Below, piece by piece: positions 110 to 21,230 of a DNA stretch of 21,410 nt. The DNA is from Candidatus Hydrogenedentota bacterium. Its GTDB lineage: Bacteria > Hydrogenedentota > Hydrogenedentia > Hydrogenedentales > SLHB01. The number at the start of each line of letters is the position of its first letter. The first letter of the stretch is position 1. Below the pieces are notes generated by a model. The model worked only from the letters and a program-made list of their open reading frames with translations, was not told where the DNA came from and did no database searches. The translations under genes were made by a program, and so were the position numbers. The stretch lies in NCBI GenBank assembly GCA_045863335.1, contig BTVY01000015.1, forward strand, positions 1 to 21,410. The letters are read 5' to 3'.

Positions 110-1939
110 TCAGCGTACTGGCGTTTGGATGGCGTACTCCGCCAGTTTTCGATAGACGGTAGGCCGGCTTACGCCCAGCATCTTCGCCGCCAGCGTAATA
201 TTCCCGCCCGCTTTTTCGAGGACTTCGGCGATCCGCTTACGCTCCAGATCCGCCAAGGAAGGCTCGCCCGCCGCGGATGCCTCATGCGCCCGGCCCGTAG
301 GCAGCCGAAGATCCTCCGCCCGAATACAGGCATCGGTGGCCAGGAAACATGCCCGCTCAATGCAGTTCCGCAATTCGCGCACGTTCCCGGGCCAACGCCA
401 TCCCATCAGCGCTTTCACGGCATCGGGATGGAACGACCGGACCGTGGGCGACCGTTCTTCCTGCGTCAATCGCAGGAAGTGATCGGCGAGGATGGGGATG
501 TCGTTAGGCCGTTCCCGCAATGGAGGCAACTCCACGGTGAATCCGTTGATTCGGTGGTACAGGTCTGCGCGAAACTGCCCCGCACGGACGGAAGACGCGA
601 TGTCCTTGTTGGTGGCCGCTACGACGCGGACGTCGACCTGGACTTCGCGATTTCCCCCGACCCGGTAGAAGGTGCCGTTCTCAATGGCGCGTAGCAGACG
701 CGCCTGGTTCTCGAGACTGAGATCGCCGATCTCATCCAGAAACAACGTTCCGCCCTCCGCCTCTTCCATTCGCCCCAACTTGCGCGACATGGCCCCGGTG
801 AACGCACCTTTTTCGTACCCGAAGAACTCGCTCTCCATCAGGTCCGGCGGGACCGCGGCGCAATTCACCACGACGAACGCCCGCGCGCTGCGGTCCGAAT
901 GATCGTGAATCAACCGTGCGGCAAGCTCTTTTCCGGTTCCCGTTTCACCCAGAATGAGAACGGGCATGCCGGAACGCGCCGCTTCTCTGAGTTGCGCCTG
1001 TGCCTTGCGAATTTCGGGACTTTCGCCTACCAGCGTCGTCCTGTCCGCCGTTCCGGACCGCAAACGTTCGTTTTCACTGCGAAAGAACTCGATCTGCTCG
1101 ATCATGTGAAACAAAGGAGCCAATTGCGACGCGACGGCCCGGAGATACGACAATGCCTTGTCATCTCGTTGAAGTACATTGTGAAGGGTACACAACGCGA
1201 ATACCCCAACCCGCTCCTGTCCGGCCGTCATGGGGACCGCGAGCGCAGTGTAGGGCGAGAAGGGCCCTCTCAATCGAACCGTCAACACATGTTGATCGTG
1301 GAATGCGCGCTCGATCAATTCCTGGGGCGGAACTAACTCCAGGGGCGCATCGTCGGCATGACGCTCATAAACCGACAGTTTGCCCCCGCCGACAGACCGG
1401 CAGAAGCAAAGGCAACGACAGGGAATCCGCGGTTCCAATTCCCGCCGTACGATGTCAAGCAACTGAGCGATGGAGGACGCATTGCCTACATTTCGGCACA
1501 TGCGAAAAAGATCCACGTAATCCTCGATCGTGTCGAGCCCTTCCATCGGGGGATTTGCGTCAAGATAGTGTGGCGTATGAGGCACGTCGTCCTCCGGAGA
1601 TTGGATGGTATCCGGTTCCCCAGCCGTTGCCTCGTCCGCTGGAAGCGTGGCCTCGGCCAGGCTTACCACGAAAATGGTTTTCCCGACGGCAATCTCATCT
1701 CCCGCTTGAAGCTTCGCTTCCGTCACGGGCCGGCCATTCAATAACGTGCAGTTGCTGCTTCCTAAATCCTTGACGCACGGAACGCCCCCATCGAGGTGGA
1801 CGACACAGTGTTGCCGGGAAATCAGCGGATCGGGAATCGTCACGTCGCAACCAAACCCGCGACCAAACACGAGCGGCTGCTCCCCGATTCGCCACGATAT
1901 CCCACGAATCGTTCCCAATCGTGCTGTTACCCAGAACAC
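110..1939 (-). CDS. Sigma54-dependent transcriptional activator (bEBP) with N-terminal FHA and GAF-like domains, AAA+ core and Fis-type HTH
   Basis: FHA motifs [16 protein letters not shown] and DLGSSNCT; Walker A GETGTGKE; GAFTGA loop; Walker B LFLDEIG; WPGNVREL; C-terminal [21 protein letters not shown]. Start moved from ORF-track 2053 to GTG at 1939, which has GGGAGG 5 nt upstream. Confidence 0.9.
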
Positions 1940-2056
1940 GCCGTCCTCCCGACTCCCAGATTGACCGCTCGCCACGCGACGCGGAACACGCCTCTCGACC
2001 GACTTATACCATACATGATACAGGTACTTAGCGGCTCCGTCCACCGCCTGCACAGT

Positions 2057-2086
2057 TTGACTTGCAATCCCGAATTTTGCTACCCT
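2057..2086 (+). promoter_or_regulatory. Putative sigma70 promoter for the yceD-rpmF-plsX-fabG operon
   Basis: TTGACT (2057-2062), 18-nt spacer, TGc-TACCCT extended -10 (2081-2086); GGAGG RBS at 2106-2110. Confidence 0.45.
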
Positions 2087-2120
2087 ACTCGCTAACCCTT
2101 CAGGCGGAGGTTGTCCGGTC

Positions 2121-2705
2121 GTGAACGTATTTCAGATTCCGCTGCCCGCCGTGACGGACGAGGGACTGGCGATTGACGCGGAGTCACCCGGCGCTGACTT
2201 ACGCCCGGAAGGCGCCGCCGAATTGCTGCTGGGACCCGTTCACCTGAAGGGTACGCTCTCCAACGATGGCGATGAGTTCATTTTCAACGGCCATCTGGAG
2301 ACAACGTATTTGGGGCAATGCGACCGATGCCTGGGCCCGGCCGAAACGCCGTTTCGTACGGACGTCCTCTGGGTCTTCGTGCGAGGTACTTCGCCGCAAC
2401 CTTCTGAAGTGTTTGAGGATGATGAAGAGGACGCCACGCTTGATGACGGCGTCATTCGGGCCTTTTTTGAGGACAACATCCTGGACTTGCGCGGAGCCGC
2501 GTGGGAAGAGATCGTTCTGGGCACGCCGCTCAAGCAGTTGTGTTCGGAATCGTGCGCGGGCTTGTGCCCCGTTTGCGGAACGAATTTGAATGAATCCTCG
2601 TGTGATTGCCGTACGGCAGAGGATTCGGAAACGTTGGAAAACAAGGGGCTCAAGGGTCTGAAAGACCTCTACCCCGATATGAACCCCGATCGTTTGGAGG
2701 ACTAA
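2121..2705 (+). CDS. yceD: YceD/DUF177 family protein (23S rRNA accumulation factor)
   Basis: CDRCL and LCSESCAGLCPVCGTNLN motifs; canonical position directly before rpmF and plsX. Confidence 0.9.
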   Translation: MNVFQIPLPAVTDEGLAIDAESPGADLRPEGAAELLLGPVHLKGTLSNDGDEFIFNGHLETTYLGQCDRCLGPAETPFRTDVLWVFVRGTSPQPSEVFEDDEEDATLDDGVIRAFFEDNILDLRGAAWEEIVLGTPLKQLCSESCAGLCPVCGTNLNESSCDCRTAEDSETLENKGLKGLKDLYPDMNPDRLED

Positions 2706-2707
2706 CC

Positions 2708-2890
2708 GTGCCGGTACCAAAGAGAAGAACCGGAAAGACCCGTAAGAACACGCGTCGTTCCCACCATGCGTTGAGCAAGCGCGTTTTCTCGGAATGCCCC
2801 AGTTGCGGCGAACGAATTATGCCGCACCGGGTATGCCCGAAATGCGGGCACTATAAGGACCGCCTCGTCGTCAACGTTGAAGGCAGCTAA
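2708..2890 (+). CDS. rpmF: 50S ribosomal protein L32 (Zn-ribbon type), 60 aa
   Basis: MPVPKRRTGKTRKNTRRSHHAL...CPSCGE..MPHRVCPKCGHY; GTG start at 2708 with GGAGG at 2696-2700. Confidence 0.97.
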   Translation: MPVPKRRTGKTRKNTRRSHHALSKRVFSECPSCGERIMPHRVCPKCGHYKDRLVVNVEGS

Positions 2891-2915
2891 ACCCCTGGGT
2901 TGGCGGGAGCCTGCC

Positions 2916-3971
2916 ATGCGAATCGCAATCGATGCCATGGGATCGGATGCAGCGCCGGATCCGGAAATTGAAGGCGCCCTGTCCGCGAGCATATCCAACG
3001 ACGTGGAGTTGATCCTGGTCGGTGACGAACCGCGCCTAAAAGCCGCTCTCGGAAACCGCGCAAAATCGCGCCGAATCTCCATCGTGCCGGCGGCGGAAGT
3101 CATCACCATGGATGAGACGCCCATGTTGGCGGTGCGCAAGAAGAAGGACGCGTCCCTCCTTGTCGCCATGCGCCTCGTCAAGCAGGGTGTGGCCGATGCC
3201 TTCTTGAGTGCTGGCAACACCGGCGCCGTAATGCTCGCGGCAAGGACGATCCTGCGCCCCATCAACGGCGTCGCCCGGTCCGCAATCTGTCAGCTCTTGC
3301 CCACAATGAAAGGCACCTGCCTCGTGCTCGACTTGGGCGCGAACGTGGACTGCAGCGCCCGTCATCTGTGCGACTTCGCCGAGATGGGTGTCGTGTATTC
3401 CCGCGAAGTGCTGGGCAAGAGCAATCCGCGCGTGGGCCTGCTCAATATCGGCGAGGAACAGGCCAAAGGAAACGACCTTGCCAAAACGGTGAACCGGAAC
3501 CTCAGCGCCGCCCCCCACGTGAATTTCGTCGGCAATGTGGAGCCTAAAGGCATGTACGCCGGGCTCGCCGACGTCGTCGTATGCGACGGATTCGTGGGCA
3601 ACGTGGTTCTGAAAACCAGTGAAGGCGCCGGGGCATTGATTCGCAGCCTGCTGGCGAAAGAGCTGCGTTCCAGTTGGGTCAGCATGCTCGGCGCGTTGCT
3701 AAGCCGGGGTGCCTACAAACGCCTCAAGCGAACCGTCGACCCAAATGAATATGGCGGTGCGCCGCTATTGGGCGTGAACGGAGTGGTCATCATCATGCAT
3801 GGCGCCTGTTCCGGGCAGGGCGTCGCCCATGCCATTGAACTGGCCTGCACCGCGGTAAAGCACGAGATCAATACACACATCGAGGAAGGCATCGCTGAAT
3901 TGAGGGCGACAGTGGCCAATCTCGATTCCAATGGCACATCTGCCCGGCACGAAGTGAGCGCCCGCAAGTAA
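2916..3971 (+). CDS. plsX: Phosphate acyltransferase PlsX
   Basis: MRIAIDAMGSD, SAGNTGA, LDLGANVD, GLLNIGEE..KG, DVVVCDGFVGNVVLKTSEG, YGGAPLLGV; ATG at 2916 after GGGAG. Confidence 0.96.
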   Translation: MRIAIDAMGSDAAPDPEIEGALSASISNDVELILVGDEPRLKAALGNRAKSRRISIVPAAEVITMDETPMLAVRKKKDASLLVAMRLVKQGVADAFLSAGNTGAVMLAARTILRPINGVARSAICQLLPTMKGTCLVLDLGANVDCSARHLCDFAEMGVVYSREVLGKSNPRVGLLNIGEEQAKGNDLAKTVNRNLSAAPHVNFVGNVEPKGMYAGLADVVVCDGFVGNVVLKTSEGAGALIRSLLAKELRSSWVSMLGALLSRGAYKRLKRTVDPNEYGGAPLLGVNGVVIIMHGACSGQGVAHAIELACTAVKHEINTHIEEGIAELRATVANLDSNGTSARHEVSARK

Positions 3972-4037
3972 ACGGGCATTAATGCTGCACGGGGTTCTGG
4001 TCGGGCGCAATCCAACGCGAATGGAAGGGGCATCACG

Positions 4038-4784
4038 TTGACCGAGTTCAAGGATCGGACAGTTCTAATCACGGGCGGTACCCGGGGTATCGGGCGCGCC
4101 TGCGCCGCATTGTTCGCCCGCGAAGGCGCGAACGTCGCCATGTGCGGCCGATCGGCCGCGAGCGCCGAGCACGCAGCCGCGGAAATCAGCGCGGAAACCG
4201 GCGGAACGGTTGCCGGATACGAAGCGGACATCGGCAATAGCGATGCCGTGGACGCAATGGTGAAGCAGGTTTCCGAGCGCTTCGGTCCGGTTTATATTCT
4301 CGTAAACAACGCGGGCATCACCCGCGACAACCTGCTCATGCGCATGAAACCGGCCGACTGGTCCACGGTGATTGAAACGAACCTGACCGGCGCGTTCAAT
4401 TGCTGCCGCGCCGTGGCGCGAGACATGGTGAAACAACGCCAAGGGCGCATCATCAACATCTCGTCCATCATCGGCATTCGCGGGCAAGGCGGTCAAACGA
4501 ACTACGCTGCCGCAAAGGCCGGTCTTATCGGATTCAGCAAATCGCTCGCGCAAGAACTCGCGTCACGCAATATCACGGTGAACGTAGTCGCGCCGGGATA
4601 TATCGAAACCGACATGACCGCCGTGCTCGGTGACGACGTGAAAACGATGCTGCTGGACAAGATTCCGCTGCGGCGTCAAGGCACCGGTGAAGATATTGCC
4701 GCCGCCGTGCGGTACTTTGCGAGCGACGGCGCATCGTATGTAACGGGAGCGGTCCTTCAGGTGGACGGCGGTCTGGCGATGTAG
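4038..4784 (+). CDS. fabG: 3-oxoacyl-ACP reductase FabG
   Basis: TGGTRGIG, LVNNAGITRDNLLMRM, YAAAK catalytic motif, VAPGYIETDMT, VDGGLAM; follows plsX; TTG start after GGAAGGGG. Confidence 0.93.
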   Translation: MTEFKDRTVLITGGTRGIGRACAALFAREGANVAMCGRSAASAEHAAAEISAETGGTVAGYEADIGNSDAVDAMVKQVSERFGPVYILVNNAGITRDNLLMRMKPADWSTVIETNLTGAFNCCRAVARDMVKQRQGRIINISSIIGIRGQGGQTNYAAAKAGLIGFSKSLAQELASRNITVNVVAPGYIETDMTAVLGDDVKTMLLDKIPLRRQGTGEDIAAAVRYFASDGASYVTGAVLQVDGGLAM

Positions 4785-4806
4785 TTGCCCGCGCTGTGGC
4801 GCACGA

Positions 4807-6729
4807 TTATAGCGTCTCGGTCGAAATCGCGTAGATATGTACGTCGTGGTACGCGTCGTGGGCAAATAAGGCTTCCCGCAGGGTCCCTTCGCGCGCAAAT
4901 CCAACGGCTTCGAGAAACGCCTGAAGCTCTTCCTCGTAGGATGCCGCTGGCACCGTCAACCTCCGGATCGACTGCTGGCCGCCGGCTTCCTTCAGAATCG
5001 TCCGGAATCCTTTCCGCACGTCGTCCGCCGCGTAGTCGTTGGGCGCGTGCATATACACCCACGCCAGCGCCGTGCCTGGTTCGCGCTCCGGGCGAAGCTT
5101 GATAAGCCCGAAGGGCTCCCCGCCTCGCTTTACCAGAATCATCTCCTGGTCAACCCCGCTCGGATGCAACGCGTCCATTTCGCGATCGTACTTGGTGGTG
5201 ATGAGGACGCCCTTTTCGTTGAACAGGAAATAGGACGCGATGTTCCAATTCTCCCAGTTCATCAGCATTTCCGCGTCAGGTTCTTCGATGGGTTTCACGC
5301 CGACCGTCATGCGAAAGGCCGCGCGCACCATTGTGAACAACGACGGCTTGGCGGTGCGCGATAACGTGTTGTATACGCGCGTGAAGTTCACGCCCTCGGA
5401 CGACAAGACGTTAAACGCGGACACGGCCGACGCCATCCACGCGCGTTGCGCCTCGCACCACGGTTCGTGTGGGGTTCGGTGAGAACCGCTCAGCGCGTGG
5501 TGCACGGCCGTGTTACCGCCGCCGCAAAGATTCCGCGCCCAACACCTCCGGCAAACCCCGGTCGTGGTCGCGCCCACCTCATCAAAACGCGCGCGGGCTT
5601 GCTCGTCAATCACGCCGTCTTCGAGCGATCCCAGCCGGTAGGCATTGATGCCCAAGAAGCGAAAGCTTGGATAAATCCCGCCGTCAGTATCCACGGCCAG
5701 CTCGTTCGTGCCGGAGGGGTCGATTCGGCGGATCGGCGAACCGTCGTAGATCCGGTAAAACAACGGAGCGATTGGATCCAACCGGAAGTATCGTTGCTGA
5801 AGCAGCCGGTTCGCGTAATAGACCGCCGTTTCGCGCAACGCGCCCAGCATGGCCTTGGGATCCAAATCGGGATTCGCAATGTAGGCGCCGTCCAGGTCCA
5901 GTTCGATTGTCGCAAACCCGGCCTTGTCCAACTCGCGCACAACTTCGCCAAACTCGGGATGATTGGGGCGTACAATAATGCGGCCCGTGACTCCGGCCGA
6001 GTCGGGATGAAGAATCTTCGCCAGTTTCGCGAGAGACTCATCGCCCGCCTTGGCCAGCAAGCGGAGATTCGGCAGAATGGCCGAACCTTCCGCGAAATCG
6101 AGTTGCAGGTGAATCGTGTGCCCGTCGAACGCCGCGGGAAGTTTCGATGTTCTGACGTCTAAAACGCGAACTGCCGCCGTCGTCTTTTTTCCCGCCATAC
6201 GGCCGCACTTCACGGCATGCGCGCACAAATCGGCGATCAATTCGGGATTGTGAATGATCTCCTCTTCAAGAAATTCGATGACGATCTCTTTCTGATCCCC
6301 CGCCCGCCCGAAGAGTAAGGAAATGGCATCGCGGCCCGCGTCCCGCGCGTTCGTGGATAGCACCGTCGCCCCTTGACCGAACCAGCCTTTCTTCTTCGAT
6401 ACCGCTTCTTCAGTGTCACGCGGCAACCGCACGGAGATCCGCTTCAACCCGCGCTCTTGCTGGATCTCCTTCTGCAGCTCTTCTTTCTTGCGCGGCGGTA
6501 GAATCGCCCGCGTGGCGCGCAGCCATTCGAGTTCGCCGATGACTTCCTCGAGCTCCTTCACATCGTGCTTGTCGCCGAGCACATGGTAGATGCGATTCAC
6601 CGAGGCATAGGGATAGTGCTCGAGCACATCCCAGGAGATCTCGTCGCACTCGAAGCAAAAGCACGTTTCGGGATCGATGGCGAACCGCCGGTCGTTCTCC
6701 ACAAAACGGTGTAGGGTTTCCTGCGTCAT
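4807..6729 (-). CDS. Degenerate CteB-like RRE / radical-SAM / SPASM protein lacking CxxxCxxC, fused to a C-terminal RimL-type GNAT domain
   Basis: N-terminal about 80 aa resembles an RRE/PqqD-like winged helix (LHRF....RFAID...DEISWDVL...ELEEVIGELEWL). The core follows the SCIFF-maturase pattern without its Cys triad. SPASM segment: ELAVDTDGGIYPS..F.G..YRLGSL.DG and CRRCWARNLCGGG...WC. C-terminal GNAT: FLEAVGFAREGTLREALF...YHDVHIYAI. ATG at 6729 overlaps the permease stop (TGATG). Confidence 0.8.
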   Translation of the reverse strand: MTQETLHRFVENDRRFAIDPETCFCFECDEISWDVLEHYPYASVNRIYHVLGDKHDVKELEEVIGELEWLRATRAILPPRKKEELQKEIQQERGLKRISVRLPRDTEEAVSKKKGWFGQGATVLSTNARDAGRDAISLLFGRAGDQKEIVIEFLEEEIIHNPELIADLCAHAVKCGRMAGKKTTAAVRVLDVRTSKLPAAFDGHTIHLQLDFAEGSAILPNLRLLAKAGDESLAKLAKILHPDSAGVTGRIIVRPNHPEFGEVVRELDKAGFATIELDLDGAYIANPDLDPKAMLGALRETAVYYANRLLQQRYFRLDPIAPLFYRIYDGSPIRRIDPSGTNELAVDTDGGIYPSFRFLGINAYRLGSLEDGVIDEQARARFDEVGATTTGVCRRCWARNLCGGGNTAVHHALSGSHRTPHEPWCEAQRAWMASAVSAFNVLSSEGVNFTRVYNTLSRTAKPSLFTMVRAAFRMTVGVKPIEEPDAEMLMNWENWNIASYFLFNEKGVLITTKYDREMDALHPSGVDQEMILVKRGGEPFGLIKLRPEREPGTALAWVYMHAPNDYAADDVRKGFRTILKEAGGQQSIRRLTVPAASYEEELQAFLEAVGFAREGTLREALFAHDAYHDVHIYAISTETL

Positions 6730-7526
6730 CAATAGGCCCCCAGGGTTCCCTTGTCGCGGCTCCAGTTCTCCATGTATTTGAAACAGGCGATACCCAAGGT
6801 GGTCCAGAGCGCAACGTTAATCAAAAGAAACGCGAACGAAGGATGTACGAAGACCTTCATGCCGATCCCCTGAATTAGCACGAGCTTCAGGCAGATGGAT
6901 GCGTCCGTAATCGGAATGAAATGGGCAAAGCCCATAATGATGGCGGGCAGGTCGTACCAGTCCGGCTTTGCGGCAAAAGCGAGCGCAATCATCCCCATAC
7001 GAACGAGCAGCGTGGCCTGACCGATCTGCTTGAAGACCAGCGTCAGCCCTCCAACCATGAATCCAAATCCGATCAGGTTTAGATACGTCAGCAACAGCAG
7101 CACGAAGGTCGGGAACGGGTCCGCGTGAAGATCGCTGTTCAGCGTCACCGAAACGAACACAAGCATAACCGTCCAGGTCAGAATGCTCACGACGGAGTTG
7201 ACGAAGGATCGCGCAAGGAAGTTGGTAATCAAGCCGTGGGGACTCATGTAAACCTGTTCCAATTCGCCCGTGCGCGCCATGCCCTGCAAACCCTGGCTGA
7301 ACATGCCGACGATGCCAAAGGCAAAAATGCCGACAACGAAACCGAGCGCGTTCTCCGTCTGGTCCGTCGCCCATTCTGTATTCACCGTACCGGACCGAAA
7401 TCCAAAGATGAGCCCGATGAGCATCCCGTAACCCACGATCATGCCCATGAGCGTGGCGAACCAATAACGCCGCATAACGATGAACGCACGGACCAGTTCC
7501 GCCTTCATGACGAGGAAAAAGCCCAC
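6729..7526 (-). CDS. ABC-2 type exporter permease, 265 aa
   Basis: About six hydrophobic segments and an ARTGELEQVYMSP motif typical of ABC-2 permeases; GTG at 7526 preceded by AAGGAAGGA, 2 nt after the ATPase stop. The ORF-track extension to 7895 overlaps the ATPase and is rejected. Confidence 0.85.
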   Translation of the reverse strand: MGFFLVMKAELVRAFIVMRRYWFATLMGMIVGYGMLIGLIFGFRSGTVNTEWATDQTENALGFVVGIFAFGIVGMFSQGLQGMARTGELEQVYMSPHGLITNFLARSFVNSVVSILTWTVMLVFVSVTLNSDLHADPFPTFVLLLLTYLNLIGFGFMVGGLTLVFKQIGQATLLVRMGMIALAFAAKPDWYDLPAIIMGFAHFIPITDASICLKLVLIQGIGMKVFVHPSFAFLLINVALWTTLGIACFKYMENWSRDKGTLGAY

Positions 7527-7528
7527 GG

Positions 7529-8569
7529 TCAATTCCTTCCTTTCGGCGCGTCGGCCTGGGATTCCGTCAACTGCAGGAAGACGCCTTCCAGATTCTGCTG
7601 CCGTTGCGTTACGGTACGGAGCAACAGCCCCTGTGATTGCAGCTGGCCCAGCGTATTGTAAAGCGCGTTGGAACGCTCCGCCTCGTCCGCGGACGTACGC
7701 AAAATGAATCCCGGACCGCCGTCGGAGTTGATAGACTCGACACCCATCACGCCGGGTAAGGCCTGGATGGTCTCGAGGTTGGGCGCGCGATCCAGGCGAA
7801 ATTCGAATCGTTGGTCCGCGAACACGCCGAGCAGTTCCTCCGTCGGCTTGCACGCGACGAGGGCGCCGTCCTTGATGATGCCGATGCGGTCGCACAATTC
7901 CTGCGCGGTACCCATATCATGCGTGGTTACCAAGACGCATTTGCCCTGTTCACGCGTCATCTCAATGACCTTGTCTTTGATGGCGCGGCTGCTTTGCACG
8001 TCTAATCCAGTCGTCGGTTCGTCAAGCAGCAGCACGGGCGGATCGGTGATGAGCGCGATACAAATCGCCAGTTTCTGCTTCTGTCCGCGCGAGAGGCGCC
8101 GCACTTGAATGTCTTTCTTGTCGGTGAGCCCGATAAAGTCCAGCAACCGGTGTGAACGTTCGCGCAAGACCTTGCCTTTCACGTCGCGCAGGTTGCCGAA
8201 GTACGCGAGATTCTCGAGCGGCGTCAGCGGCCAGATGCAGGTACGGGTACCCTCAAGAACAACTCCGATGCGCCGCAACACCTGCAGCCGTTTCTTCTCC
8301 ACGGGAAGGTCGTCGACGAACACCTCGCCGCTGCATGGCTTGACCAACCCGGAGATCATCTTGACCGTCGTCGTCTTGCCCGCGCCGTTGCGACCCAGGA
8401 GTCCGAAGATCTCCCCCGAGCGAATCCCAAACGAAACCCGGTCGACGGCGTGAACGGTCTTCTTCCGGTAGATCGGCCGCCGGCCGGTCTCTTCGTTTTT
8501 GGAGAAGAAGTGGCGGGTGTAGAACGTCTTGTCGACGTCGCGCAATTCTACGAGATACGGACTGCTCAT
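7529..8569 (-). CDS. ABC exporter ATP-binding protein (ABC-2/DrrA-like)
   Basis: Walker A GRNGAGKTT, signature LSRGQKQK, Walker B LLLDEPTTGLD, H-loop TTHD, C-terminal LEGVFLQLT. Confidence 0.95.
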   Translation of the reverse strand: MSSPYLVELRDVDKTFYTRHFFSKNEETGRRPIYRKKTVHAVDRVSFGIRSGEIFGLLGRNGAGKTTTVKMISGLVKPCSGEVFVDDLPVEKKRLQVLRRIGVVLEGTRTCIWPLTPLENLAYFGNLRDVKGKVLRERSHRLLDFIGLTDKKDIQVRRLSRGQKQKLAICIALITDPPVLLLDEPTTGLDVQSSRAIKDKVIEMTREQGKCVLVTTHDMGTAQELCDRIGIIKDGALVACKPTEELLGVFADQRFEFRLDRAPNLETIQALPGVMGVESINSDGGPGFILRTSADEAERSNALYNTLGQLQSQGLLLRTVTQRQQNLEGVFLQLTESQADAPKGRN

Positions 8570-9303
8570 AGGTTCCCCGGTCGCCCCGGCATGTAGGCCT
8601 GTTCGATCGCCTTGGCCGCTTGTTCCTCGTCGCCGAGTTCCTCGATCTTGATGAGGTACTCCAGGTAGGCAATCTCAATATCCCGGAGCGCATGGATAAC
8701 CATCACCAGGATAAAACTCCCCGTAAAGTGATAGAGGATGCCGAGTAGCAAGGCGAAAACAATGAACTCCAGCGAAATGTGCCAGGTGTTCTCAAAGAAA
8801 TGCTTATGCACCACAACAAACGCGGCGGCCACGACCACAACCCCTACTCCGGCCGCAGCCGGAGCTGGCATCCACGCAGCCAGAAAAGCAATCAGGATCG
8901 TCTGCGCGGCGACACGCCATATCAGTTCCTCCGCGACCGCCACGCCAAGAAAGCGGGTCAGCACCACAGGGCTGTCCATCGTAAAATTCCAGATAGGGCC
9001 GAAGTCGAAGAAATGACTCCACGCATCGCGCCAGGAAAGATGGGTGGCCAGCAGGGACAAACCGAAAATAAGGTGCCCGGCGACCAGGCCAATGGCAATG
9101 TATACCGGCGAGACGAGCTGGCGAGAAAAGACCCCCTGGTCCCAACCGATGTACGCGGCCAACCAGAACAAGGGACCCTGCATCAACACGTGTATCATGC
9201 GCGTGCGGCCCCGTGGCTGTCCTTCCGTTTCCATGGGATTTGTGGCAAGCGAAAATCCAACATGCGCCAGGAGGACGACCATGAAAAGCGATTCGAGTAT
9301 CAC
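8566..9303 (-). CDS. CPBP family (Abi / type II CAAX) intramembrane metalloprotease
   Basis: Multi-TM protein with EELIWR (EExxxR), FVVVH (FxxxH) and HALRD (HxxxN/D); overlaps both neighbours by 4 nt. Confidence 0.85.
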   Translation of the reverse strand: MILESLFMVVLLAHVGFSLATNPMETEGQPRGRTRMIHVLMQGPLFWLAAYIGWDQGVFSRQLVSPVYIAIGLVAGHLIFGLSLLATHLSWRDAWSHFFDFGPIWNFTMDSPVVLTRFLGVAVAEELIWRVAAQTILIAFLAAWMPAPAAAGVGVVVVAAAFVVVHKHFFENTWHISLEFIVFALLLGILYHFTGSFILVMVIHALRDIEIAYLEYLIKIEELGDEEQAAKAIEQAYMPGRPGNL

Positions 9304-9932
9304 GAAGACACCTCGTCGGCGACGGCCGGCTGTTTCAGATCGGCGATCATCGTTGCGAGGTCGATTCCCTTGAACTTCTTCTTGAACATCTCGCGAAGCT
9401 CTTCAAACTCGCTCCGCAACAGGCCGTACCCATAGAGGTCGTACAGTTCGCCATCGCGCGCGACGTGTTGCCGCAATACCAACTCGCGCTTGGCGCCGGA
9501 GAGTTCGAAGTTGCGCCAGGATCGGGTATTGAACCCGTAGATGTAGATATTGATGCGATGCATGTTCAGTTCGTGAAAGCAGTACTCGAGCACGCGATAG
9601 AAGGCGATCGTCCCGATGAAGCCGTTCCGGCGCTTCTCCGTGAGATACGAATCGATATTGCAGGAGCGGTTGCGCCAACTGATATGAACCACCGAGAAGA
9701 GGCCCACCGGCCCCAGCTTCTCCGAATCGGCCATGAAGTAGATTCCGCTGGGCATGGCGTGGTTGGCGGACCGGCCCAGCATGCCGACAATCTGTTCGCG
9801 AATCTGCTTCGGCGAACGCGTGGGGTCGCCATACAGAAAACGCTGAAACGCGGGATCTTCCATCCAGGAGACAACCGTATCGAGGTCGTCCCGATCGGCG
9901 CGCCGAATGTACACGCTGGATTTAAGCGCCAT
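9300..9932 (-). CDS. GNAT N-acyltransferase, RimJ/RimL-like, 210 aa
   Basis: YIRRADRDDL, ISWRNRSCNI, EKRRNGFIG (motif A-like), YCFHELNMHRI, FNTRS, YGYGLLRSEF; ATG at 9932 after GGGAG. Confidence 0.85.
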   Translation of the reverse strand: MALKSSVYIRRADRDDLDTVVSWMEDPAFQRFLYGDPTRSPKQIREQIVGMLGRSANHAMPSGIYFMADSEKLGPVGLFSVVHISWRNRSCNIDSYLTEKRRNGFIGTIAFYRVLEYCFHELNMHRINIYIYGFNTRSWRNFELSGAKRELVLRQHVARDGELYDLYGYGLLRSEFEELREMFKKKFKGIDLATMIADLKQPAVADEVSS

Positions 9933-10500
9933 GAGCAACTCCCGCTGTCGCATTCGAATCGTGGGTTTGGCCGCGTGCGGCGTCGAATTCCGCACGCAGG
10001 ATGCCATAACCGTACACGTCACAGGGCGAACCATCACGTAGACCGTGCCCCCGCAAGACGACTTCCCTCCGGGCGCCGAGGCATTCGAGGGCTTGATGCG
10101 CGGCATCGGTGGTGGAGTCCACCCGCGCGCTGACCCGGTGCAGGTTTAACTCGTCAAAACAATACTCCACCATCGCACGAAAGGCGCTCTGATAGAAGCG
10201 CTCGGGTTCAACAACGCCCGCCGCATACACACTGACAGCGCAGGATCGGTTGCGCCAGCTCAGGTCCTGCACGCTGGCAAGTCCGACGGGCCCCCGATCC
10301 TCCGCGGCGCACACGAAATGGCCGGCCGTAGACGAGGGCATCGACATGGCGCCACCCAACAGCGCGAGGATGTGCGAACCCATCTGTTGCTTGATGCGAT
10401 CGTTGTCGCCGTATAGAAAACGCCGAAACGCCGGGTCGCTCAACCAGTCCACGATGACGTCCAGATCGCGCCGTTCAGGCCGTCGAAGCTTCAGCTTCAT
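9922..10500 (-). CDS. GNAT-fold protein, RimJ/RimL-like; paralog of 9300-9932
   Basis: LRRPERRDL, DPAFRRFLYGD, GPVGL, SWRNRSC, YCFDELNLHRV, GARREVVLR, YGYGILRAEF; motif A glycine loop not recognisable. Confidence 0.85.
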   Translation of the reverse strand: MKLKLRRPERRDLDVIVDWLSDPAFRRFLYGDNDRIKQQMGSHILALLGGAMSMPSSTAGHFVCAAEDRGPVGLASVQDLSWRNRSCAVSVYAAGVVEPERFYQSAFRAMVEYCFDELNLHRVSARVDSTTDAAHQALECLGARREVVLRGHGLRDGSPCDVYGYGILRAEFDAARGQTHDSNATAGVAHGA

Positions 10501-11047
10501 GCAGCGGCTCCTTCAAGCGTTTGAGACCCTCTTCGCGGAACAAGGTGAGCGATTCGAGGTTGAAATACTGCCCCTTAGTGTACACCATGTCGCGCTGCAC
10601 GCCGTCGCTCTCGAATCCGCGTGCGGCGAGAAAGGCCCGGTACGCCCGTTCCGAGCTGATGCAGTGGGACTGGAGCTTGTTCATCTTCTTATCGATGAAC
10701 GCCGTTCGCAGAATGAACTGGAACACCTCTTCCGCAAGATTGGTGGCGTAGTACTCGTCCTTCCCAAAGACCAGGACGATTTCCGCGTAGTCGGACTCCG
10801 ACTTGGATCCGCGGAGCACGCAACACCCGCAGACCTCGCCGGTCTTGTCCTCCACGGCAAAGAAGGTCCCCATGACGATATCGCGCCGCCCAAGCATCTC
10901 TCGCACTTCGTCGATGGTAGGAATCATGACTTCCCGGGAAGGACCAAGCAGAAAGGCACGAGGTACACTGGGGTCGTACAATTGCCACAACGCGAATGCA
11001 TCGTCGGGCTCAGCCGACCGGATAACAGCATGTTCCCCTGTAATCAT
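10475..11047 (-). CDS. GNAT-fold protein, RimJ/RimL-like
   Basis: MITGEHAVIRSAEPDD, FFAVEDKTGEVCG, AFIDKKMNKL, RGFESDGVQRD...GQYFN; CoA-binding loop appears degenerate. Confidence 0.8.
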   Translation of the reverse strand: MITGEHAVIRSAEPDDAFALWQLYDPSVPRAFLLGPSREVMIPTIDEVREMLGRRDIVMGTFFAVEDKTGEVCGCCVLRGSKSESDYAEIVLVFGKDEYYATNLAEEVFQFILRTAFIDKKMNKLQSHCISSERAYRAFLAARGFESDGVQRDMVYTKGQYFNLESLTLFREEGLKRLKEPLHEAEASTA

Positions 11048-11184
11048 GCGGAGGTTCCCTGGTCAGATAATCGATTGGTTGCCGGACGGGTCGCGGTCCC
11101 GCTGGCGGACCGTCCGCCCGGGAGGTTTCGCGCGCTTCAGCCGCCCGCACCAGCCCCAACCGCAACACGAAATCATACATTAGG

Positions 11185-11222
11185 AAAAAAATACCGGGAC
11201 TTCAACACTTCCGAAGCCCCGG
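11185..11222 (-). terminator. Intrinsic (rho-independent) terminator between the peptide genes and the GNAT genes
   Basis: Minus strand reads CCGGGGCTTC-ggaagtgtt-GAAGTCCCGG (10-bp stem, one G:U) followed by TATTTTTTT, 27 nt after the stop at 11250. Confidence 0.8.
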
Positions 11223-11249
11223 CCAGTAAACTCTTCGTCGCGCTATCCG

Positions 11250-11387
11250 TCAGGAAGTTGGTGTGACGATCGCATTCTTCTTCGTATACACGTAGTCGAG
11301 CCACGTCTGCCACAGCGCATTGTACAGGTCCGCAAGGGCGTCTGCCTTGGCCATCTTACCCGAGGTAATCCCGCGAATGTGCTTCAT
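11250..11387 (-). CDS. Small peptide B, 45 aa, candidate RiPP precursor: MKHIRGITSGKMAKADALADLYNALWQTWLDYVYTKKNAIVTPTS
   Basis: Strong RBS GGAGGAG 9 nt upstream of the ATG; MKHxxxIT N-terminus shared with peptide A; followed by a terminator. Confidence 0.75.
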   Translation of the reverse strand: MKHIRGITSGKMAKADALADLYNALWQTWLDYVYTKKNAIVTPTS

Positions 11388-11510
11388 GAAACCCATCTCC
11401 TCCAGGTTATCGGGCGTTCCGCCCCGCGCGGAGAGTCTCCGGCCGCAAAATCGGGCCGCCTCTCGAAACACAAGTCTTCGAAAACATTGGCCATCCGGCA
11501 CTGCCGGCGC

Positions 11511-11705
11511 TTATGATTCTGGATTCTTGACCGAGTTGAACTGGGTCAGGGCGCTCAACAAGCCGTCGAAGACGGTGGATGCCGCACCGATAAAGGTGGT
11601 CACCAAATCAAAACCCAAGCTCAGAATCGAAAGCAGAAACGACAAGTCGGTCGTCTCGTTGTTCGCAAGCAGCGGAGTCTTGGTAATCGTCGTAACGTGC
11701 TTCAC
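11511..11705 (-). CDS. Small peptide A, 64 aa, candidate RiPP precursor: MKHVTTITKTPLLANNETTDLSFLLSILSLGFDLVTTFIGAASTVFDGLLSALTQFNSVKNPES
   Basis: GTG at 11705 with GGGAG RBS upstream; first ORF after the consensus promoter; N-terminus matches peptide B. Confidence 0.7.
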   Translation of the reverse strand: MKHVTTITKTPLLANNETTDLSFLLSILSLGFDLVTTFIGAASTVFDGLLSALTQFNSVKNPES

Positions 11706-11787
11706 AATAGTGTCTCCCGCTCGATGTTCGCAGTCTATACTGCTCTGGGCGCACCCCGTTTGGACCGGGGCCGCAGAGGCCAGCGCG

Positions 11788-11816
11788 AGTATAGCACCGC
11801 TCCAACACAGTGTCAA
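11788..11816 (-). promoter_or_regulatory. Near-consensus sigma70 promoter driving the peptide genes
   Basis: Minus strand TTGACA (11816-11811), 17-nt spacer, TATACT (11793-11788), with an extended -10 TG. Confidence 0.8.
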
Positions 11817-11994
11817 CAGTTTCCCAAACAACCGTCACGCAAGCATTTACAGCGCGTTCCAGTTGGGGGCTCACGCCGCGCGTCTCTCACTATTCTACAC
11901 GCCGAAACCCGGCACGTTACCGAACCTCGCCCGGCGAGTCCCCTGCTTTATCTATCATGCCTGGACCGCCGGATAAGTTCCCTTTGGCCACCGG

Positions 11995-13482
11995 TCACGA
12001 CCCGGAAAGTGCCACGCTGTCGTACCCGTGCGTGTATGCGCCCGGCAAATCCGAGTACCCCATCAGGTCGATGTCGATCACGCGTGCCGCCTCGCGACCT
12101 TCGTGGATCGCCCAGACGACCAGCGATTGGCCGCGCCGCGCGTCCCCGGCCGCATAGACCTTTTCCTTGCTGGTCCGGTACGTGCCGTAGTCGGCCTTGA
12201 TGTTTCCGCGCCCGTCCAATTCGAGGTCGAATTGCTTCGGCAATGCATGTTCCGGATGCACGAATCCGAGCGCCAGGAGTACCAAGTCGCATTCCAGCTT
12301 GAACTCGCTGCCCGGAACCTCAATCATCTTCGGCCGGCCGCTGGTGTCGGGCTCGCCCCACTCCAGGCGAACGGCGTTGATGTGCGTTACTCTGCCATCC
12401 TTGCCTTCAAAACTCTTGGTCAGGATGCTCCAGTCGCGTTCGCCGCCCTCTTCATGGCTGGAAGAGGTCCGAAGGATCAACGGCCAATTGGGCCACGGGG
12501 TCTTTTCGTTAAACCCTTCCGGCGGCTTGGGCAACAGTTCGACGGACCATACGTGCTTGGCGCCCTGCCGCAGGCTCGTCCCGTGGCAGTCGGACCCGGT
12601 ATCGCCGCCGCCAAGGACTACCACGTTCTTGTCGGTCGCAACGATCTCTTTATTGTTAATTTTCTTGCCGGATACCCGCCGATTCTGCTGCGTCAAAAAC
12701 TCCATGGCAAAATGAATGCCGTCCAGCTCCCGGCCCGGTATCGGCAGATCCCGCGGCTGGGTGGAGCCGGCGGTAATCAGCACGGCGTCAAACTCGGCTT
12801 CGAGTTCCGGACCCGTGACATCTTTTCCAACGAAGCAACTGCACTTGAAGATGACGCCTTCCTCTTCCATCTGGCGGATTCGGCGGCGCACGACCTCCTT
12901 GTTCAACTTGAAATCCGGGATCCCGTAGAGCAGCAGACCGCCCGGTTCATCGTCGCGCTCGAACACGGTCACCGTATGACCGGCGCGGTTCAGCTGTTGT
13001 GCGGCTGCAAGACCTGCCGGACCGGCTCCCACGACGGCGACTTTCTTTCCGGTGCGCGTCGCGGGCGGCTCGGGCCTGATAAGCCCTTCGTTGAACCCGT
13101 GGTCAGCGATGGACCGCTCGATGAGCTTAATCGTCACCGGTGGCTCGATGATCCCGAGTACGCAGGACGCCTCGCACGGAGCTGGGCAAACGCGGCCCGT
13201 GAACTCCGGGAAGTTGTTTGTGGAGTGCAAGCGTTCCAGCGCCTCTTCCCACTTCAAGTCTTTGACGAGATCGTTAAAGTCAGGAATGATATTGCCCAGG
13301 GGACACCCCGACTGGCAGAAGGGAACGCCGCAGTTCATGCAGCGGTAACCCTGGTCCTGCATCTTCTCGTCGTTGAAGTCCGTCAGAAACTCGTCCCAAT
13401 GCTTCGTACGCTCTTCTTTCGGCGCGTACGGGGGCAGTTCCCTGCCGTATACCATGAAGCCCTTTTCTTTGTTGGGGCGCAT
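11995..13482 (-). CDS. gltD: Glutamate synthase small subunit
   Basis: [69 protein letters not shown]; directly downstream of gltB. Confidence 0.97.
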
Positions 13483-13494
13483 TCGTAAACTCCT

Positions 13495-18048
<4,554 letters not shown>

Positions 18049-18163
18049 GGACAACAGTACCGTCCTTTCTTCAAGCTCTCCGGGGGGAGTCTGCCCGTTT
18101 GGGCCCGCGTAAGGCCGGGAAGATACAATGCACCCTGCCTCCCCGGACAAGACTTGCGCCGCG

Positions 18164-19973: not shown

Positions 19974-21230
19974 ATGAGCAAGCAAGCTATCTCGAAACAG
20001 CGGATTGCGGAGCAGCCGGACCCCCTCTTCGACCGCATCGTCACGATTCTCGAGGAAGCACGCGGCAGCGTGGTCCGCGCAGTTAACACGCAGATGGTGA
20101 CGGCCTATTGGCTGATCGGACGCGAGATCGTGGAAGCCCTGCAAGGCGGGGAGGACCGGGCGGAATATGGCAAACAGGTGGTCGAGAATCTATCCGAGCG
20201 GCTGACGGAGCGGTATGGAAAAGGCTTCTCAGAAGTGAGTTTGCAGCGCTTCCGAAAGTTCTATCTCGTTTACAAAGAACGCCTTGCAATTCCGTCCCCG
20301 CCGGGGACGGAATCTGAGTCAAAACCAATTCCGTCCCCAATAGGGACGAATTCGGCAGTCGCGGAAAAACCCCACCCGGCGGGTGGGGAATTCGACAGCG
20401 GCAACGCAATTCCCTCCCCGCCAGGAAGAGAATTGGCGGTCTCTCGAAAAAGTCACCCGCCGGGTAGCGAAACACAAACCTTCTCGCCGCAACTTTCCTG
20501 GTCCCACTACCGGGCGCTGATGCGGGTAGAAGACCCGGCCGCGCGGGAGTTCTACGAGCGCGAGGCCGCCGAATGCGGCTGGAGCAAGGCCCAGCTCGAA
20601 CGGCAGATTCAGTCCTCCTACTACCAGCGCATCCTGGCCAATCGCGGCGAGGCCGGACTGGCCGCGCCAGAGCGCGAGCGCCTGCCCGGCGAACCGATCA
20701 ACGCCGGCCACGTCCTCAAGTCGCCCTACGTGCTGGAGTTCCTCGGCCTGCCCGACGCGCCCGAACTGCACGAGAGCGCCTTCGAACAGGCGATCATCGA
20801 CAACCTGCAATCCTTCCTGCTGGAGTTGGGAAAAGGCTTCTCCTTCGTCGCCCGCCAGAAGCACATCCGACTTGACGACGACGACTTCTACGTAGACCTC
20901 GTATTCTACAACTTCATCTTGAAGTGCTTTCTGCTGATTGACCTGAAGATCGGCAAGTTAACCCACCGCGACGTGGGACAGATGGACGGCTATGTCCGTC
21001 TCTTCGAGGACCGTTTCAAACTGCCCGGCGACAATCCCACCATCGGCCTGATTCTGTGTTCCGACAAAGGCGAAGCCGTGGCGAAGTATTCCGTGCTGAG
21101 CGAAGGCCGCCAGATCTTCGCCTCCAAATACCTGCAATTCCTACCCAGCGAAGAAGAACTGCGGATCGAAATCCAGAAGGAGCGCAAATTGATCGAGGCG
21201 GCTTTGGAGGAAGAGAAAAACACCGGCTAA
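19974..21230 (+). CDS. yhcG: YhcG / DUF1016 family PD-(D/E)XK nuclease-domain protein
   Basis: AVNTQMVTAYWLIGREIVE, RAEYGK, LSWSHYR, AREFYE.EA...WS...LERQI, LKSPYVLEFL, FLLELGKGFSFVARQ, YVDLVFYN, LIDLK, GQMDGYV, DNPTIGLILC. Confidence 0.93.
   Translation: MSKQAISKQRIAEQPDPLFDRIVTILEEARGSVVRAVNTQMVTAYWLIGREIVEALQGGEDRAEYGKQVVENLSERLTERYGKGFSEVSLQRFRKFYLVYKERLAIPSPPGTESESKPIPSPIGTNSAVAEKPHPAGGEFDSGNAIPSPPGRELAVSRKSHPPGSETQTFSPQLSWSHYRALMRVEDPAAREFYEREAAECGWSKAQLERQIQSSYYQRILANRGEAGLAAPERERLPGEPINAGHVLKSPYVLEFLGLPDAPELHESAFEQAIIDNLQSFLLELGKGFSFVARQKHIRLDDDDFYVDLVFYNFILKCFLLIDLKIGKLTHRDVGQMDGYVRLFEDRFKLPGDNPTIGLILCSDKGEAVAKYSVLSEGRQIFASKYLQFLPSEEELRIEIQKERKLIEAALEEEKNTG
20289..20474 (+). repeat. 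Five in-frame palindromic repeat units inside yhcG
   Basis: Units start at 20289, 20328, 20367, 20409 and 20448 and encode IPSPPGTES / IPSPIGTNS / KPHPAGGEF / IPSPPGREL / KSHPPGSET. Unit 1 is an 11-bp perfect stem; unit 3 is an 8-bp perfect stem. Confidence 0.8.

Follow-up and report, generated by a model that had tools for sequence, protein, structure and literature searches.

Two small genes at the head of an operon

The window analysed here is a stretch of 21,410 nucleotides (nts) from a Candidatus Hydrogenedentota bacterium (contig BTVY01000015.1 of assembly GCA_045863335.1). We focus on two small genes at its positions 11250-11705, which encode peptide A and peptide B, and on the operon behind them. 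The last gene of this operon encodes a fusion protein in which parts related to a radical S-adenosylmethionine (SAM) maturase, starting with a domain like the recognition element (RRE) for RiPPs (peptides that are made by ribosomes and modified after translation), are joined to a GNAT-like domain. An earlier reading made from the letters alone (the sequence-only reading) had placed at 11250-11705 two open reading frames (ORFs) free of cysteine, each with its own ribosome-binding site (RBS). Both ORFs were found there, on the minus strand, each preceded by an RBS, and the Cys count is zero in both. The first codon of peptide A is GTG, so that its "M" is the initiator reading. The features of the locus are collected in Table 1.

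Table 1. Features of the peptide locus and its operon (positions in the window; aa, amino acids).
Feature	Position	Strand	Description
Peptide A gene	11511-11705	minus	64 aa, GTG start, RBS GGGAGA; MKH leader, hydrophobic Cys-free core, single late Lys (K-N), 4-residue tail
Peptide B gene	11250-11387	minus	45 aa, ATG start, RBS GGAGGAG; MKH leader, Trp/Tyr-rich core, then KKN and tail
Sigma-70-type promoter	11788-11816	minus	TTGACA, 17 nt, TG-n-TATACT; 11/12 matches, extended -10; consensus match only
Intrinsic-terminator-like hairpin, 3' of peptide B	11193-11223	minus	13 pairs, then T run
GNAT 1	10475-11047	minus	190 aa, divergent; Pfam PF13420/PF13302; PDB 8fv0 E 0.0076; 25% identity to fused domain, E 2e-7
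GNAT 2	9922-10500	minus	192 aa; lineage-specific duplicate of GNAT 3 (42% identity); in closer relatives only
GNAT 3	9300-9932	minus	about 210 aa (ORF finder extends to 10106); most canonical and best conserved GNAT; Pfam PF13302, 53 bits
CPBP (Rce1-like) intramembrane protease	8566-9303	minus	Pfam PF02517, 35.6 bits (cut-off 22.4)
ABC transporter ATPase, DrrA-like	7529-8569	minus	family-model matches
Polytopic membrane protein, presumed permease partner of the ATPase	6729 to ~7500	minus	no Pfam match; syntenic in relatives
Fusion protein gene	4807-6732	minus	640 aa; last gene of operon
Fusion residues 1-78, RRE-like N-terminal domain	6496-6729	minus	most conserved part; CxCxxC
Fusion residues 95-470, radical-SAM-barrel-like and SPASM-like parts	5320-6447	minus	no CxxxCxxC; GGEP replaced; only CX2CX5C...C cysteines kept
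Fusion residues 471-640, C-terminal GNAT-like domain	4810-5319	minus	PF13420 14.3 bits; RimL model E 0.0025

Pairwise ratios of nonsynonymous to synonymous substitution rates (dN/dS) among five orthologues range from 0.06 to 0.34 for peptide A (10 pairs) and from 0.06 to 0.23 for peptide B (8 of the 10 pairs, the other two being too saturated to compute), in comparisons where the synonymous sites are near saturation (proportion of synonymous differences, pS, 0.56-0.83). Residues M1, K2, H3, A15, N23, W29 and K36 are invariant in 15 orthologues of peptide B. The promoter lies 5' of peptide A and has a counterpart at the same position in the related loci L014 (11/12 matches) and L016 (10/12); the hairpin behind peptide B also has a counterpart in L014 (14 pairs), and none was found after peptide B in L016. 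Chance open frames in an intergenic region would fit with the scarcity of such genes in databases, as gene callers mostly miss them and only 4 clusters similar to peptide B occur among 5.8 billion clustered proteins. However, dN/dS values well below 1, the conservation of position, strand, RBS and leader in 18 of 20 related loci, and the excess of leader motifs in the genome (both described below) reduce the probability of this explanation to almost nothing. We conclude that the ORFs of peptides A and B are real genes under selection.

Peptide B is also covered by contigs of four RNA libraries from four studies, which is weak evidence, as DNA carry-over is possible. These contigs hold no transcript ends or levels, and neither their depth nor the parts left uncovered can rank genes; within this limit, the sole contigs of runs X17 and X18 over positions 9800-12800 cover peptide B, and the contig of run X15 over the peptides is deeper than its neighbours. 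A sigma-54 promoter pattern (TGGCAC-N5-TTGCW, up to two mismatches) matches the window only once, at a great distance from the peptides, which is below the number expected by chance. No Rfam family or tRNA was found in the window, and the 128-nt stretch over the spacer between peptides A and B gave no signal of RNA structure (z-score 0.12). Finally, the best score of an ESM Atlas search with peptide B (0.78) is at chance level.

A conserved leader in front of unrelated cores

BLASTP gives no alignment between peptide A and peptide B. What they have in common are short motifs, first of all the start MKH(I/V)xxIT. An Ala at position 14 or 15, a late K-N and a terminal PxS had also been proposed as shared; all three are present in A and B, but the terminal PxS is not kept in the orthologues. 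The expectation that more such peptides are scattered across the genome was borne out by a scan of its 6.75 Mb for [MVL]KH[IVL]xx[ILVM][TS] at a start codon, which gave 17 matches, 16 of them in ORFs of at most 80 aa. Since eight permuted or substituted control motifs gave only 0-6 matches each (0-3 short) in the same genome, the MKH start motif is more than chance. In a profile built from 24 leaders, M1, K2 and H3 are invariant and P12 and A15 are conserved in at least 90%. The leader can be written over about 14 residues as M-K-H-[IVL]-x-x-[ILVM]-[ST]-x(2-4)-P-x-x-A, while the cores behind it are unrelated. This is the pattern of conserved leader and variable core that had been predicted.

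The leader profile finds 15 genes at E<=0.01 on 8 contigs, namely C1 (5), C22 (3), C15 (2), C3, C8, C31, C47 and C56; a separate scan with a hidden Markov model added weaker candidates on C6 and C16. Two matches of the scan were not counted as members: C24:83444, which the leader profile does not find, and C22:94158, whose ORF has 229 aa. The orphan MKH genes, i.e., those away from the operon, adjoin unrelated genes (sulfatase, kinase, dehydrogenase, DegP, Amt and others). The five genes on contig C1 (L047:8312-8683 and 11523-12080) have short Lys/Pro-rich cores with K-P-V-K-type repeats, unlike the hydrophobic cores of the cluster-linked peptides, and the last three are followed by a terminator-like hairpin of 11 pairs. 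NCBIfam gives no match at E<=1 for peptides A and B and none at E<=10 for 10 orphans. The leader profile, run against PDB chains with the CteA 21-mer in mind, gives no match at E<=10.

Conservation of the operon

Except for the generic ABC (ATP-binding cassette) ATPase, the operon genes are single-copy in the genome. Their order, i.e., peptides, gnat1, (gnat2), gnat3, CPBP protease, ABC ATPase, permease and fusion gene, is kept throughout the related loci. We collected 34 of these, of which the 20 with at least 4.5 kb upstream of the fusion gene are assessable for peptide genes. Upstream MKH peptides on the same strand are present in 18 of the 20 (1-5 per locus, 44 peptides in total), and the MKH motif is thus conserved beside orthologous clusters. 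Among four very divergent loci, whose fusion proteins share 26-35% identity with ours, three keep both the synteny and the upstream MKH peptides.

The three stand-alone GNATs score above the Pfam cut-offs. The nearest solved structures of GNAT 3 are diamine/spermidine N-acetyltransferases (E 2.5e-10), AAC(6') and RimJ/RimL, and these relatives acylate primary amines. GNAT 1 is a weak paralogue of the GNAT-like domain of the fusion protein. In the CPBP protein the motifs EExxxR, FxxxH and HxxxD are intact, and they are conserved in 17 sequences.

A maturase homologue without the radical-SAM cluster motif

The sole PDB match of the fusion protein is CteB (5WGG), the maturase of a SCIFF peptide, which aligns with residues 7-431 at E 8.7e-19. 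Residues 1-100 on their own align to residues 7-92 of true ScfB (E 3e-6), a result that speaks for homology only. The best NCBIfam models are the ScfB-related NF040492 and TIGR03974, both far below cut-off, together with a RimL-type model for the C-terminus; the score with TIGR03974 is 73.1 bits against a curated cut-off of 425, whereas true ScfB proteins reach 491-590 bits. The last 170 residues are GNAT-like and align with GNAT 1. In the databases the family bears only the names "SPASM domain-containing", "GNAT family" or "uncharacterized".

The cluster-binding motif CxxxCxxC is found in none of 25 orthologues of the fusion protein and in none of 50 family representatives, which were taken at E<=1e-30 when 1.84 billion proteins were searched. 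ScfB-like enzymes make up the tier that follows in this search, and 72 of its 75 long matches carry the motif at about residue 95-130. The GGE of such enzymes contacts SAM; in the alignment of the fusion protein, GGEP of CteB is replaced by EEEI. Four of the seven SPASM cysteines are kept (C394, C397, C403 and C426), and these are invariant in 25/25 orthologues. Overall, conservation is concentrated at the N-terminus, with 24 of 78 invariant columns (31%) in the RRE-like domain versus 14 of 241 (6%) in the barrel-like part.

The most divergent homologue, encoded in locus L055 (G042:C9, ~4772-6604, minus strand; 29% identity), has all seven SPASM cysteines and no CxxxCxxC. Because this protein keeps the SPASM set without the radical-SAM motif, the comparison suggests a stepwise decay in which the radical-SAM cluster was lost first and the first auxiliary cluster afterwards. 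Three further ScfB-like proteins outside the fusion family (P0256, P0213 and P0246) are also without CxxxCxxC. One of them, P0256 (656 aa), retains the SPASM cysteines and is extended at the C-terminus by a part with a G-D-S-M-L-P stretch, which we take to resemble S24/S26 peptidases; P0256 could thus be a further case of a maturase that decayed and was joined to an enzyme of another kind.

The RRE-like domain has cysteines of its own. A CxCxxC motif (fusion residues 24-29; window 6643-6660, minus strand) is invariant in the 25 orthologues. It occupies the strand that corresponds, in the alignment, to CteB's leader-binding strand, and could serve to bind a metal or a cluster. In the divergent loci L056 and L057 it is reduced to CFxC, and in L055 it is absent. 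A metal bridge between His3 of the leader and this strand was considered and is weakened by these loci, in which MKH leaders persist with CFxC or with no Cys on that strand.

The invariance of the four SPASM cysteines (CX2CX5C...C) and of CxCxxC raises the question of whether redox or radical catalysis persists in the fusion protein, which would use the retained SPASM cluster and CxCxxC for a modification other than a thioether on Cys-free cores, with the GNATs acting later. We regard this as highly improbable: CxxxCxxC is missing from the whole set of representatives, GGEP is replaced, the barrel-like part is the least conserved region of the protein, and CxCxxC is degraded or gone in divergent lineages that still keep MKH peptides.

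One candidate reader for many leaders

The distribution of leaders and fusion protein was compared in 121 genomes of the phylum, counting as a leader match any hit at E<=0.01 with profile A3. The fusion protein is present in 111 of them. Leader matches occur in 85 of these 111 genomes versus none of the 10 that lack the fusion protein; within this genus, each genome has 6-18 matches.

Within our genome, the fusion protein is the only CteB/ScfB-like protein, and no SCIFF peptide was found: the best whole-genome match to TIGR03973 lies elsewhere and reaches 13 bits against a cut-off of 50. We also considered that another maturase might serve the orphan peptides. The three other SPASM proteins of the genome (an anaerobic sulfatase maturase, a PqqE/AlbA-like protein and one other) are not ScfB-like, and none of them lies on a contig with an MKH gene. 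An intact radical-SAM/SPASM enzyme on contig C13 (C13:129222-130634, minus strand; L059:3223-4635) is extended at the N-terminus by ~150 residues, possibly an RRE. The enzyme matches PqqE and AlbA models best, in each case below the cut-off, and has no MKH gene in its vicinity; it could represent a second and unrelated peptide maturase.

Cores with a late lysine

All 46 cluster-linked peptides have a late Lys, 1-14 residues from the C-terminus (2-14 residues in 45). It is the only Lys of the core in 22 of them, and in 38 it is directly followed by N (19), E (16) or D (3); behind it comes a short tail of polar character. The same placement is found in 10 of the 15 orphans. The amphipathic periodicity claimed for both cores turned out to be only modest, since the hydrophobic moment compared with 500 shuffles gives p=0.09 for peptide A and p=0.06 for peptide B; across the 46 peptides, p<=0.05 in 12 and p<=0.2 in 38.

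Hydrophobic and modestly amphipathic cores could also belong to membrane-active or surfactant-like peptides that are exported unmodified. The MKH leader would then only mark the peptide for processing by the CPBP protease and for export by the ABC transporter, and the GNATs and the fusion protein would serve self-protection or regulation, for instance by acetylating peptide left in the cell. The conservation of a protease and an exporter that, from their motifs, appear active is consistent with this scheme, as are the non-canonical loops of GNAT 1 and of the fused GNAT-like domain (see below), and CPBP proteins are described as serving also in bacteriocin immunity (PMC10482373). However, it does not account for the fact that the fusion protein is most conserved in a CteB-like leader-binding domain, for the restriction of leader genes to fusion-bearing genomes, or for the retention of a single late Lys by cores that are poor in Lys. 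Furthermore, conservation in 111 of 121 genomes would be unusual for a bacteriocin and its immunity gene. We consider unmodified export fairly unlikely.

Comparison with SCIFF and other peptide systems

SCIFF offers the closest comparison, as its maturase is the nearest solved and curated relative of the fusion protein, N-terminal leader-binding domain included. In CteB, the CteA leader extends the RRE beta-sheet (PMC6231123). The sequence-only reading had stated that SCIFF precursors such as CteA start with MKHIK. To compare the leaders directly, we collected 80 metagenome loci around relatives of true ScfB, 67 of which have an ORF with the SCIFF core (C.EC..SC.SAC). The common starts are MKHINTIK (14), MKHIKTLN (7), MKQIKTLN (4) and MKHIKTIQ (3), in agreement with that statement; 27 of the 67 ORFs start with MKH by automatic choice of the start codon, which is an undercount. 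When 10,693 ORFs were ranked with a profile built from Hydrogenedentota leaders only, SCIFF ORFs took the top 17 places, at E 0.07-1 with none reaching 0.01. The resemblance to the SCIFF leader extends over about 8 residues and by itself does not reach significance; we consider it real but short, and no proof of homology.

The two systems have further traits in common: the precursors are small, easily missed genes in both (PMC5300114), and both span a whole lineage rather than occurring sporadically (PMC8326336 for SCIFF). On the other hand, SCIFF precursors have six cysteines and a conserved core of ~45 residues, whereas the MKH peptides have no Cys and lack this core. ScfB has CxxxCxxC and seven SPASM cysteines, while the fusion protein has neither CxxxCxxC nor three of the SPASM cysteines, and carries a GNAT-like domain. 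Unlike in SCIFF, the MKH precursors lie ~4.5 kb from the maturase homologue, behind the GNATs, the protease and the transporter, and have many unlinked copies. Because the Cys content, both curated scores, CxxxCxxC and the SPASM motif all fall short of the SCIFF definition, neither peptide A nor peptide B is a SCIFF peptide, and the fusion protein does not count as ScfB.

With respect to the GNATs, the selidamides are the nearest parallel. Selidamide GNATs acylate Lys or ornithine near the core termini (PMC8784127), and here too GNAT genes stand in a precursor-peptide cluster with a Lys near the end of the core as potential acyl acceptor. Selidamide precursors, as far as this source describes them, have NHLP or Nif11 leaders and Gly-Gly junctions (PMC8784127); the MKH peptides match neither leader. 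Moreover, lanthionine synthetase and arginase are both absent here, the GNAT domains number 3-4, with one joined to a decayed radical-SAM scaffold, and the acylation is putative.

Many scattered precursors with one conserved leader and one enzyme are known from prochlorosin-type systems. At least 15 leader genes with unrelated cores, on 8 contigs and with a single candidate leader reader, resemble this arrangement; the enzyme class and the leader are different, and action in trans would have to be assumed here.

The CPBP protease, with EExxxR and FxxxH, adjoins small peptide genes, which recalls MroQ with AgrD and eukaryotic Rce1 with CAAX proteins, although its substrate and cleavage site are putative in our case. 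MroQ, itself a CPBP protein, cuts off the N-terminal part of AgrD, and some bacterial CPBP proteins are bacteriocin immunity proteins, not maturases (PMC10482373).

A radical-SAM/SPASM fold without the canonical cluster motif is also shared by the pseudo-SAM/SPASM family TIGR04347. This is a different family, which is not among the NCBIfam matches of the fusion protein, and we know of no GNAT fusion or leader-peptide link in it.

A proposed pathway

Taken together, we think it probable that peptides A and B are precursors of a RiPP-like pathway, in which the leader is read by a decayed radical-SAM scaffold and the peptide is then N-acylated by GNATs, cleaved by a protease and exported. In analogy to CteA and CteB, the leader would dock on the RRE-like N-terminal domain of the fusion protein. 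The latter would descend from a radical-SAM/SPASM maturase of the SCIFF type and, because the radical-SAM motif and the ligands of the first auxiliary cluster have been lost, would no longer be able to form thioethers and would now act as a leader-reading scaffold. Cys-free substrates become intelligible in this way, since the part resembling a SCIFF maturase has lost its radical-SAM cluster motif. The peptide would be N-acylated or N-acetylated by the GNAT-like domain of the fusion protein and by the stand-alone GNATs, two or three in number, most likely at the conserved late Lys, with the new N-terminus as the alternative site. The CPBP protease may cleave off the leader, in the manner of MroQ with AgrD, or else the C-terminal tail. 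The ABC transporter would be the predicted exporter of the product. The scattered MKH genes would use the same machinery in trans.

A bolder form of this pathway can be envisaged, which we hold to be unlikely. In this form, one dead leader reader fused to an acyltransferase would serve up to ~18 MKH peptides, each N-acylated and possibly lipidated on its single near-C-terminal Lys, after which the Rce1-like protease would trim the tail. This would be a lysine-based bacterial counterpart of CAAX processing, yielding ribosomal lipopeptides throughout the lineage.

A number of observations weigh against the proposed pathway. Concerning the acyltransferases, the score of the fused domain with PF13420 (14.3 bits) stays below the cut-off of 24.3, and this domain and GNAT 1, which are 25% identical (E 2e-7), are both without the glycine-rich loop of the solved GNAT aligned with them (8fv0 in the case of GNAT 1, as its nearest solved relative). 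Because this loop is missing, the two may not bind acyl-CoA. Lys is a common residue, and its position might be conserved for another purpose, such as recognition by the protease or anchoring in the membrane. As for the peptides, A and B match no curated leader or precursor family in Pfam or NCBIfam, and the likeness of the leader to that of SCIFF is not significant (TIGR03973 gives no match). The synteny also has its exceptions: no upstream peptide was found in the divergent locus L058; in L030 (positions 1266-4487) a gene for an RND-type efflux pump replaces gnat1 and the peptide genes, and the cluster starts at gnat3; and L027, whose upstream part has ambiguous bases, shows no GNAT or CPBP gene. 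Finally, the co-occurrence of leaders and fusion protein is partly trivial, as the cluster-linked peptides lie inside the operon. Profile A3 was built partly from this genome, 26 of the 111 fusion-bearing genomes have no leader match at E<=0.01, and 8 of the 10 fusion-less genomes belong to one family, which leaves few independent losses.

Genes around the cluster

Directly upstream of the peptides, on the same strand, lie gltB and gltD, encoding glutamate synthase (11995-18150, minus strand). Of the 20 assessable loci, 13 have a gltD homologue at the same place (L014, L020-L022, L026, L032, L033, L036-L038, L040, L041 and L044), and so does the divergent locus L056. This adjacency may be synteny by inheritance, or may point to a connection with nitrogen metabolism. 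Nitrogen assimilation also marks the surroundings of the orphan MKH gene on contig C47 (L053:8061-8234), which is located a short way downstream of the genes for two sigma-54 activators, for an ammonium transporter and for a P-II protein (L053:2347-8234).

These neighbours bear on another explanation, namely that the peptides are small structural or regulatory membrane proteins, for instance regulators or accessory subunits of the ABC/CPBP machinery or of nearby genes for nitrogen assimilation, and not substrates, with MKH as a shared motif for interaction or stability. Besides the position of gltD and the orphan that follows amt-glnK, the hydrophobicity of peptide A, which would suffice for a membrane location, is in line with this idea. 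However, 1-5 copies per locus with freely varying cores behind an invariant leader are the pattern of a precursor family, several orphans have Lys/Pro-rich cores that are not hydrophobic, and the link to a maturase homologue bearing an RRE fits substrates better. We therefore judge a structural or regulatory role decidedly unlikely, and retain the precursors of a RiPP-like pathway as the preferred explanation.

The remaining genes of the window comprise a sigma-54 activator with FHA and GAF-like parts (110-2053, minus strand), yceD, plsX and fabG (2121-4784, plus strand), which are convergent with the cluster and adjacent to it only within the genus, and a YhcG/DUF1016 nuclease of the PDDEXK type (19974-21230, plus strand). 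The neighbourhood of plsX and fabG was considered as a hint to an acyl-ACP donor and was dropped, since it is restricted to the genus (4 of 34 loci).

Significance

Among the papers listed for RiPPs of Hydrogenedentes, as judged from titles and abstracts, and for SCIFF or SPASM proteins with a GNAT and a precursor peptide, where a general review stood beside unrelated matches, nothing on an MKH system was found. The MKH peptides would form an unannotated precursor family, to which no Pfam or NCBIfam model corresponds. If the proposed pathway is correct, the module of leader, reader and GNAT might provide a short way to acylated peptides that are encoded genetically. Most genomes of the phylum, which is uncultured and common in samples from sludge and bioreactors, contain the system, and it would represent a Cys-free sister system to SCIFF, whose own lineage-wide role is still debated (PMC8326336). 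More generally, it would mean that a radical-SAM peptide maturase can decay to a substrate-recognition scaffold and be re-used for a different chemistry.

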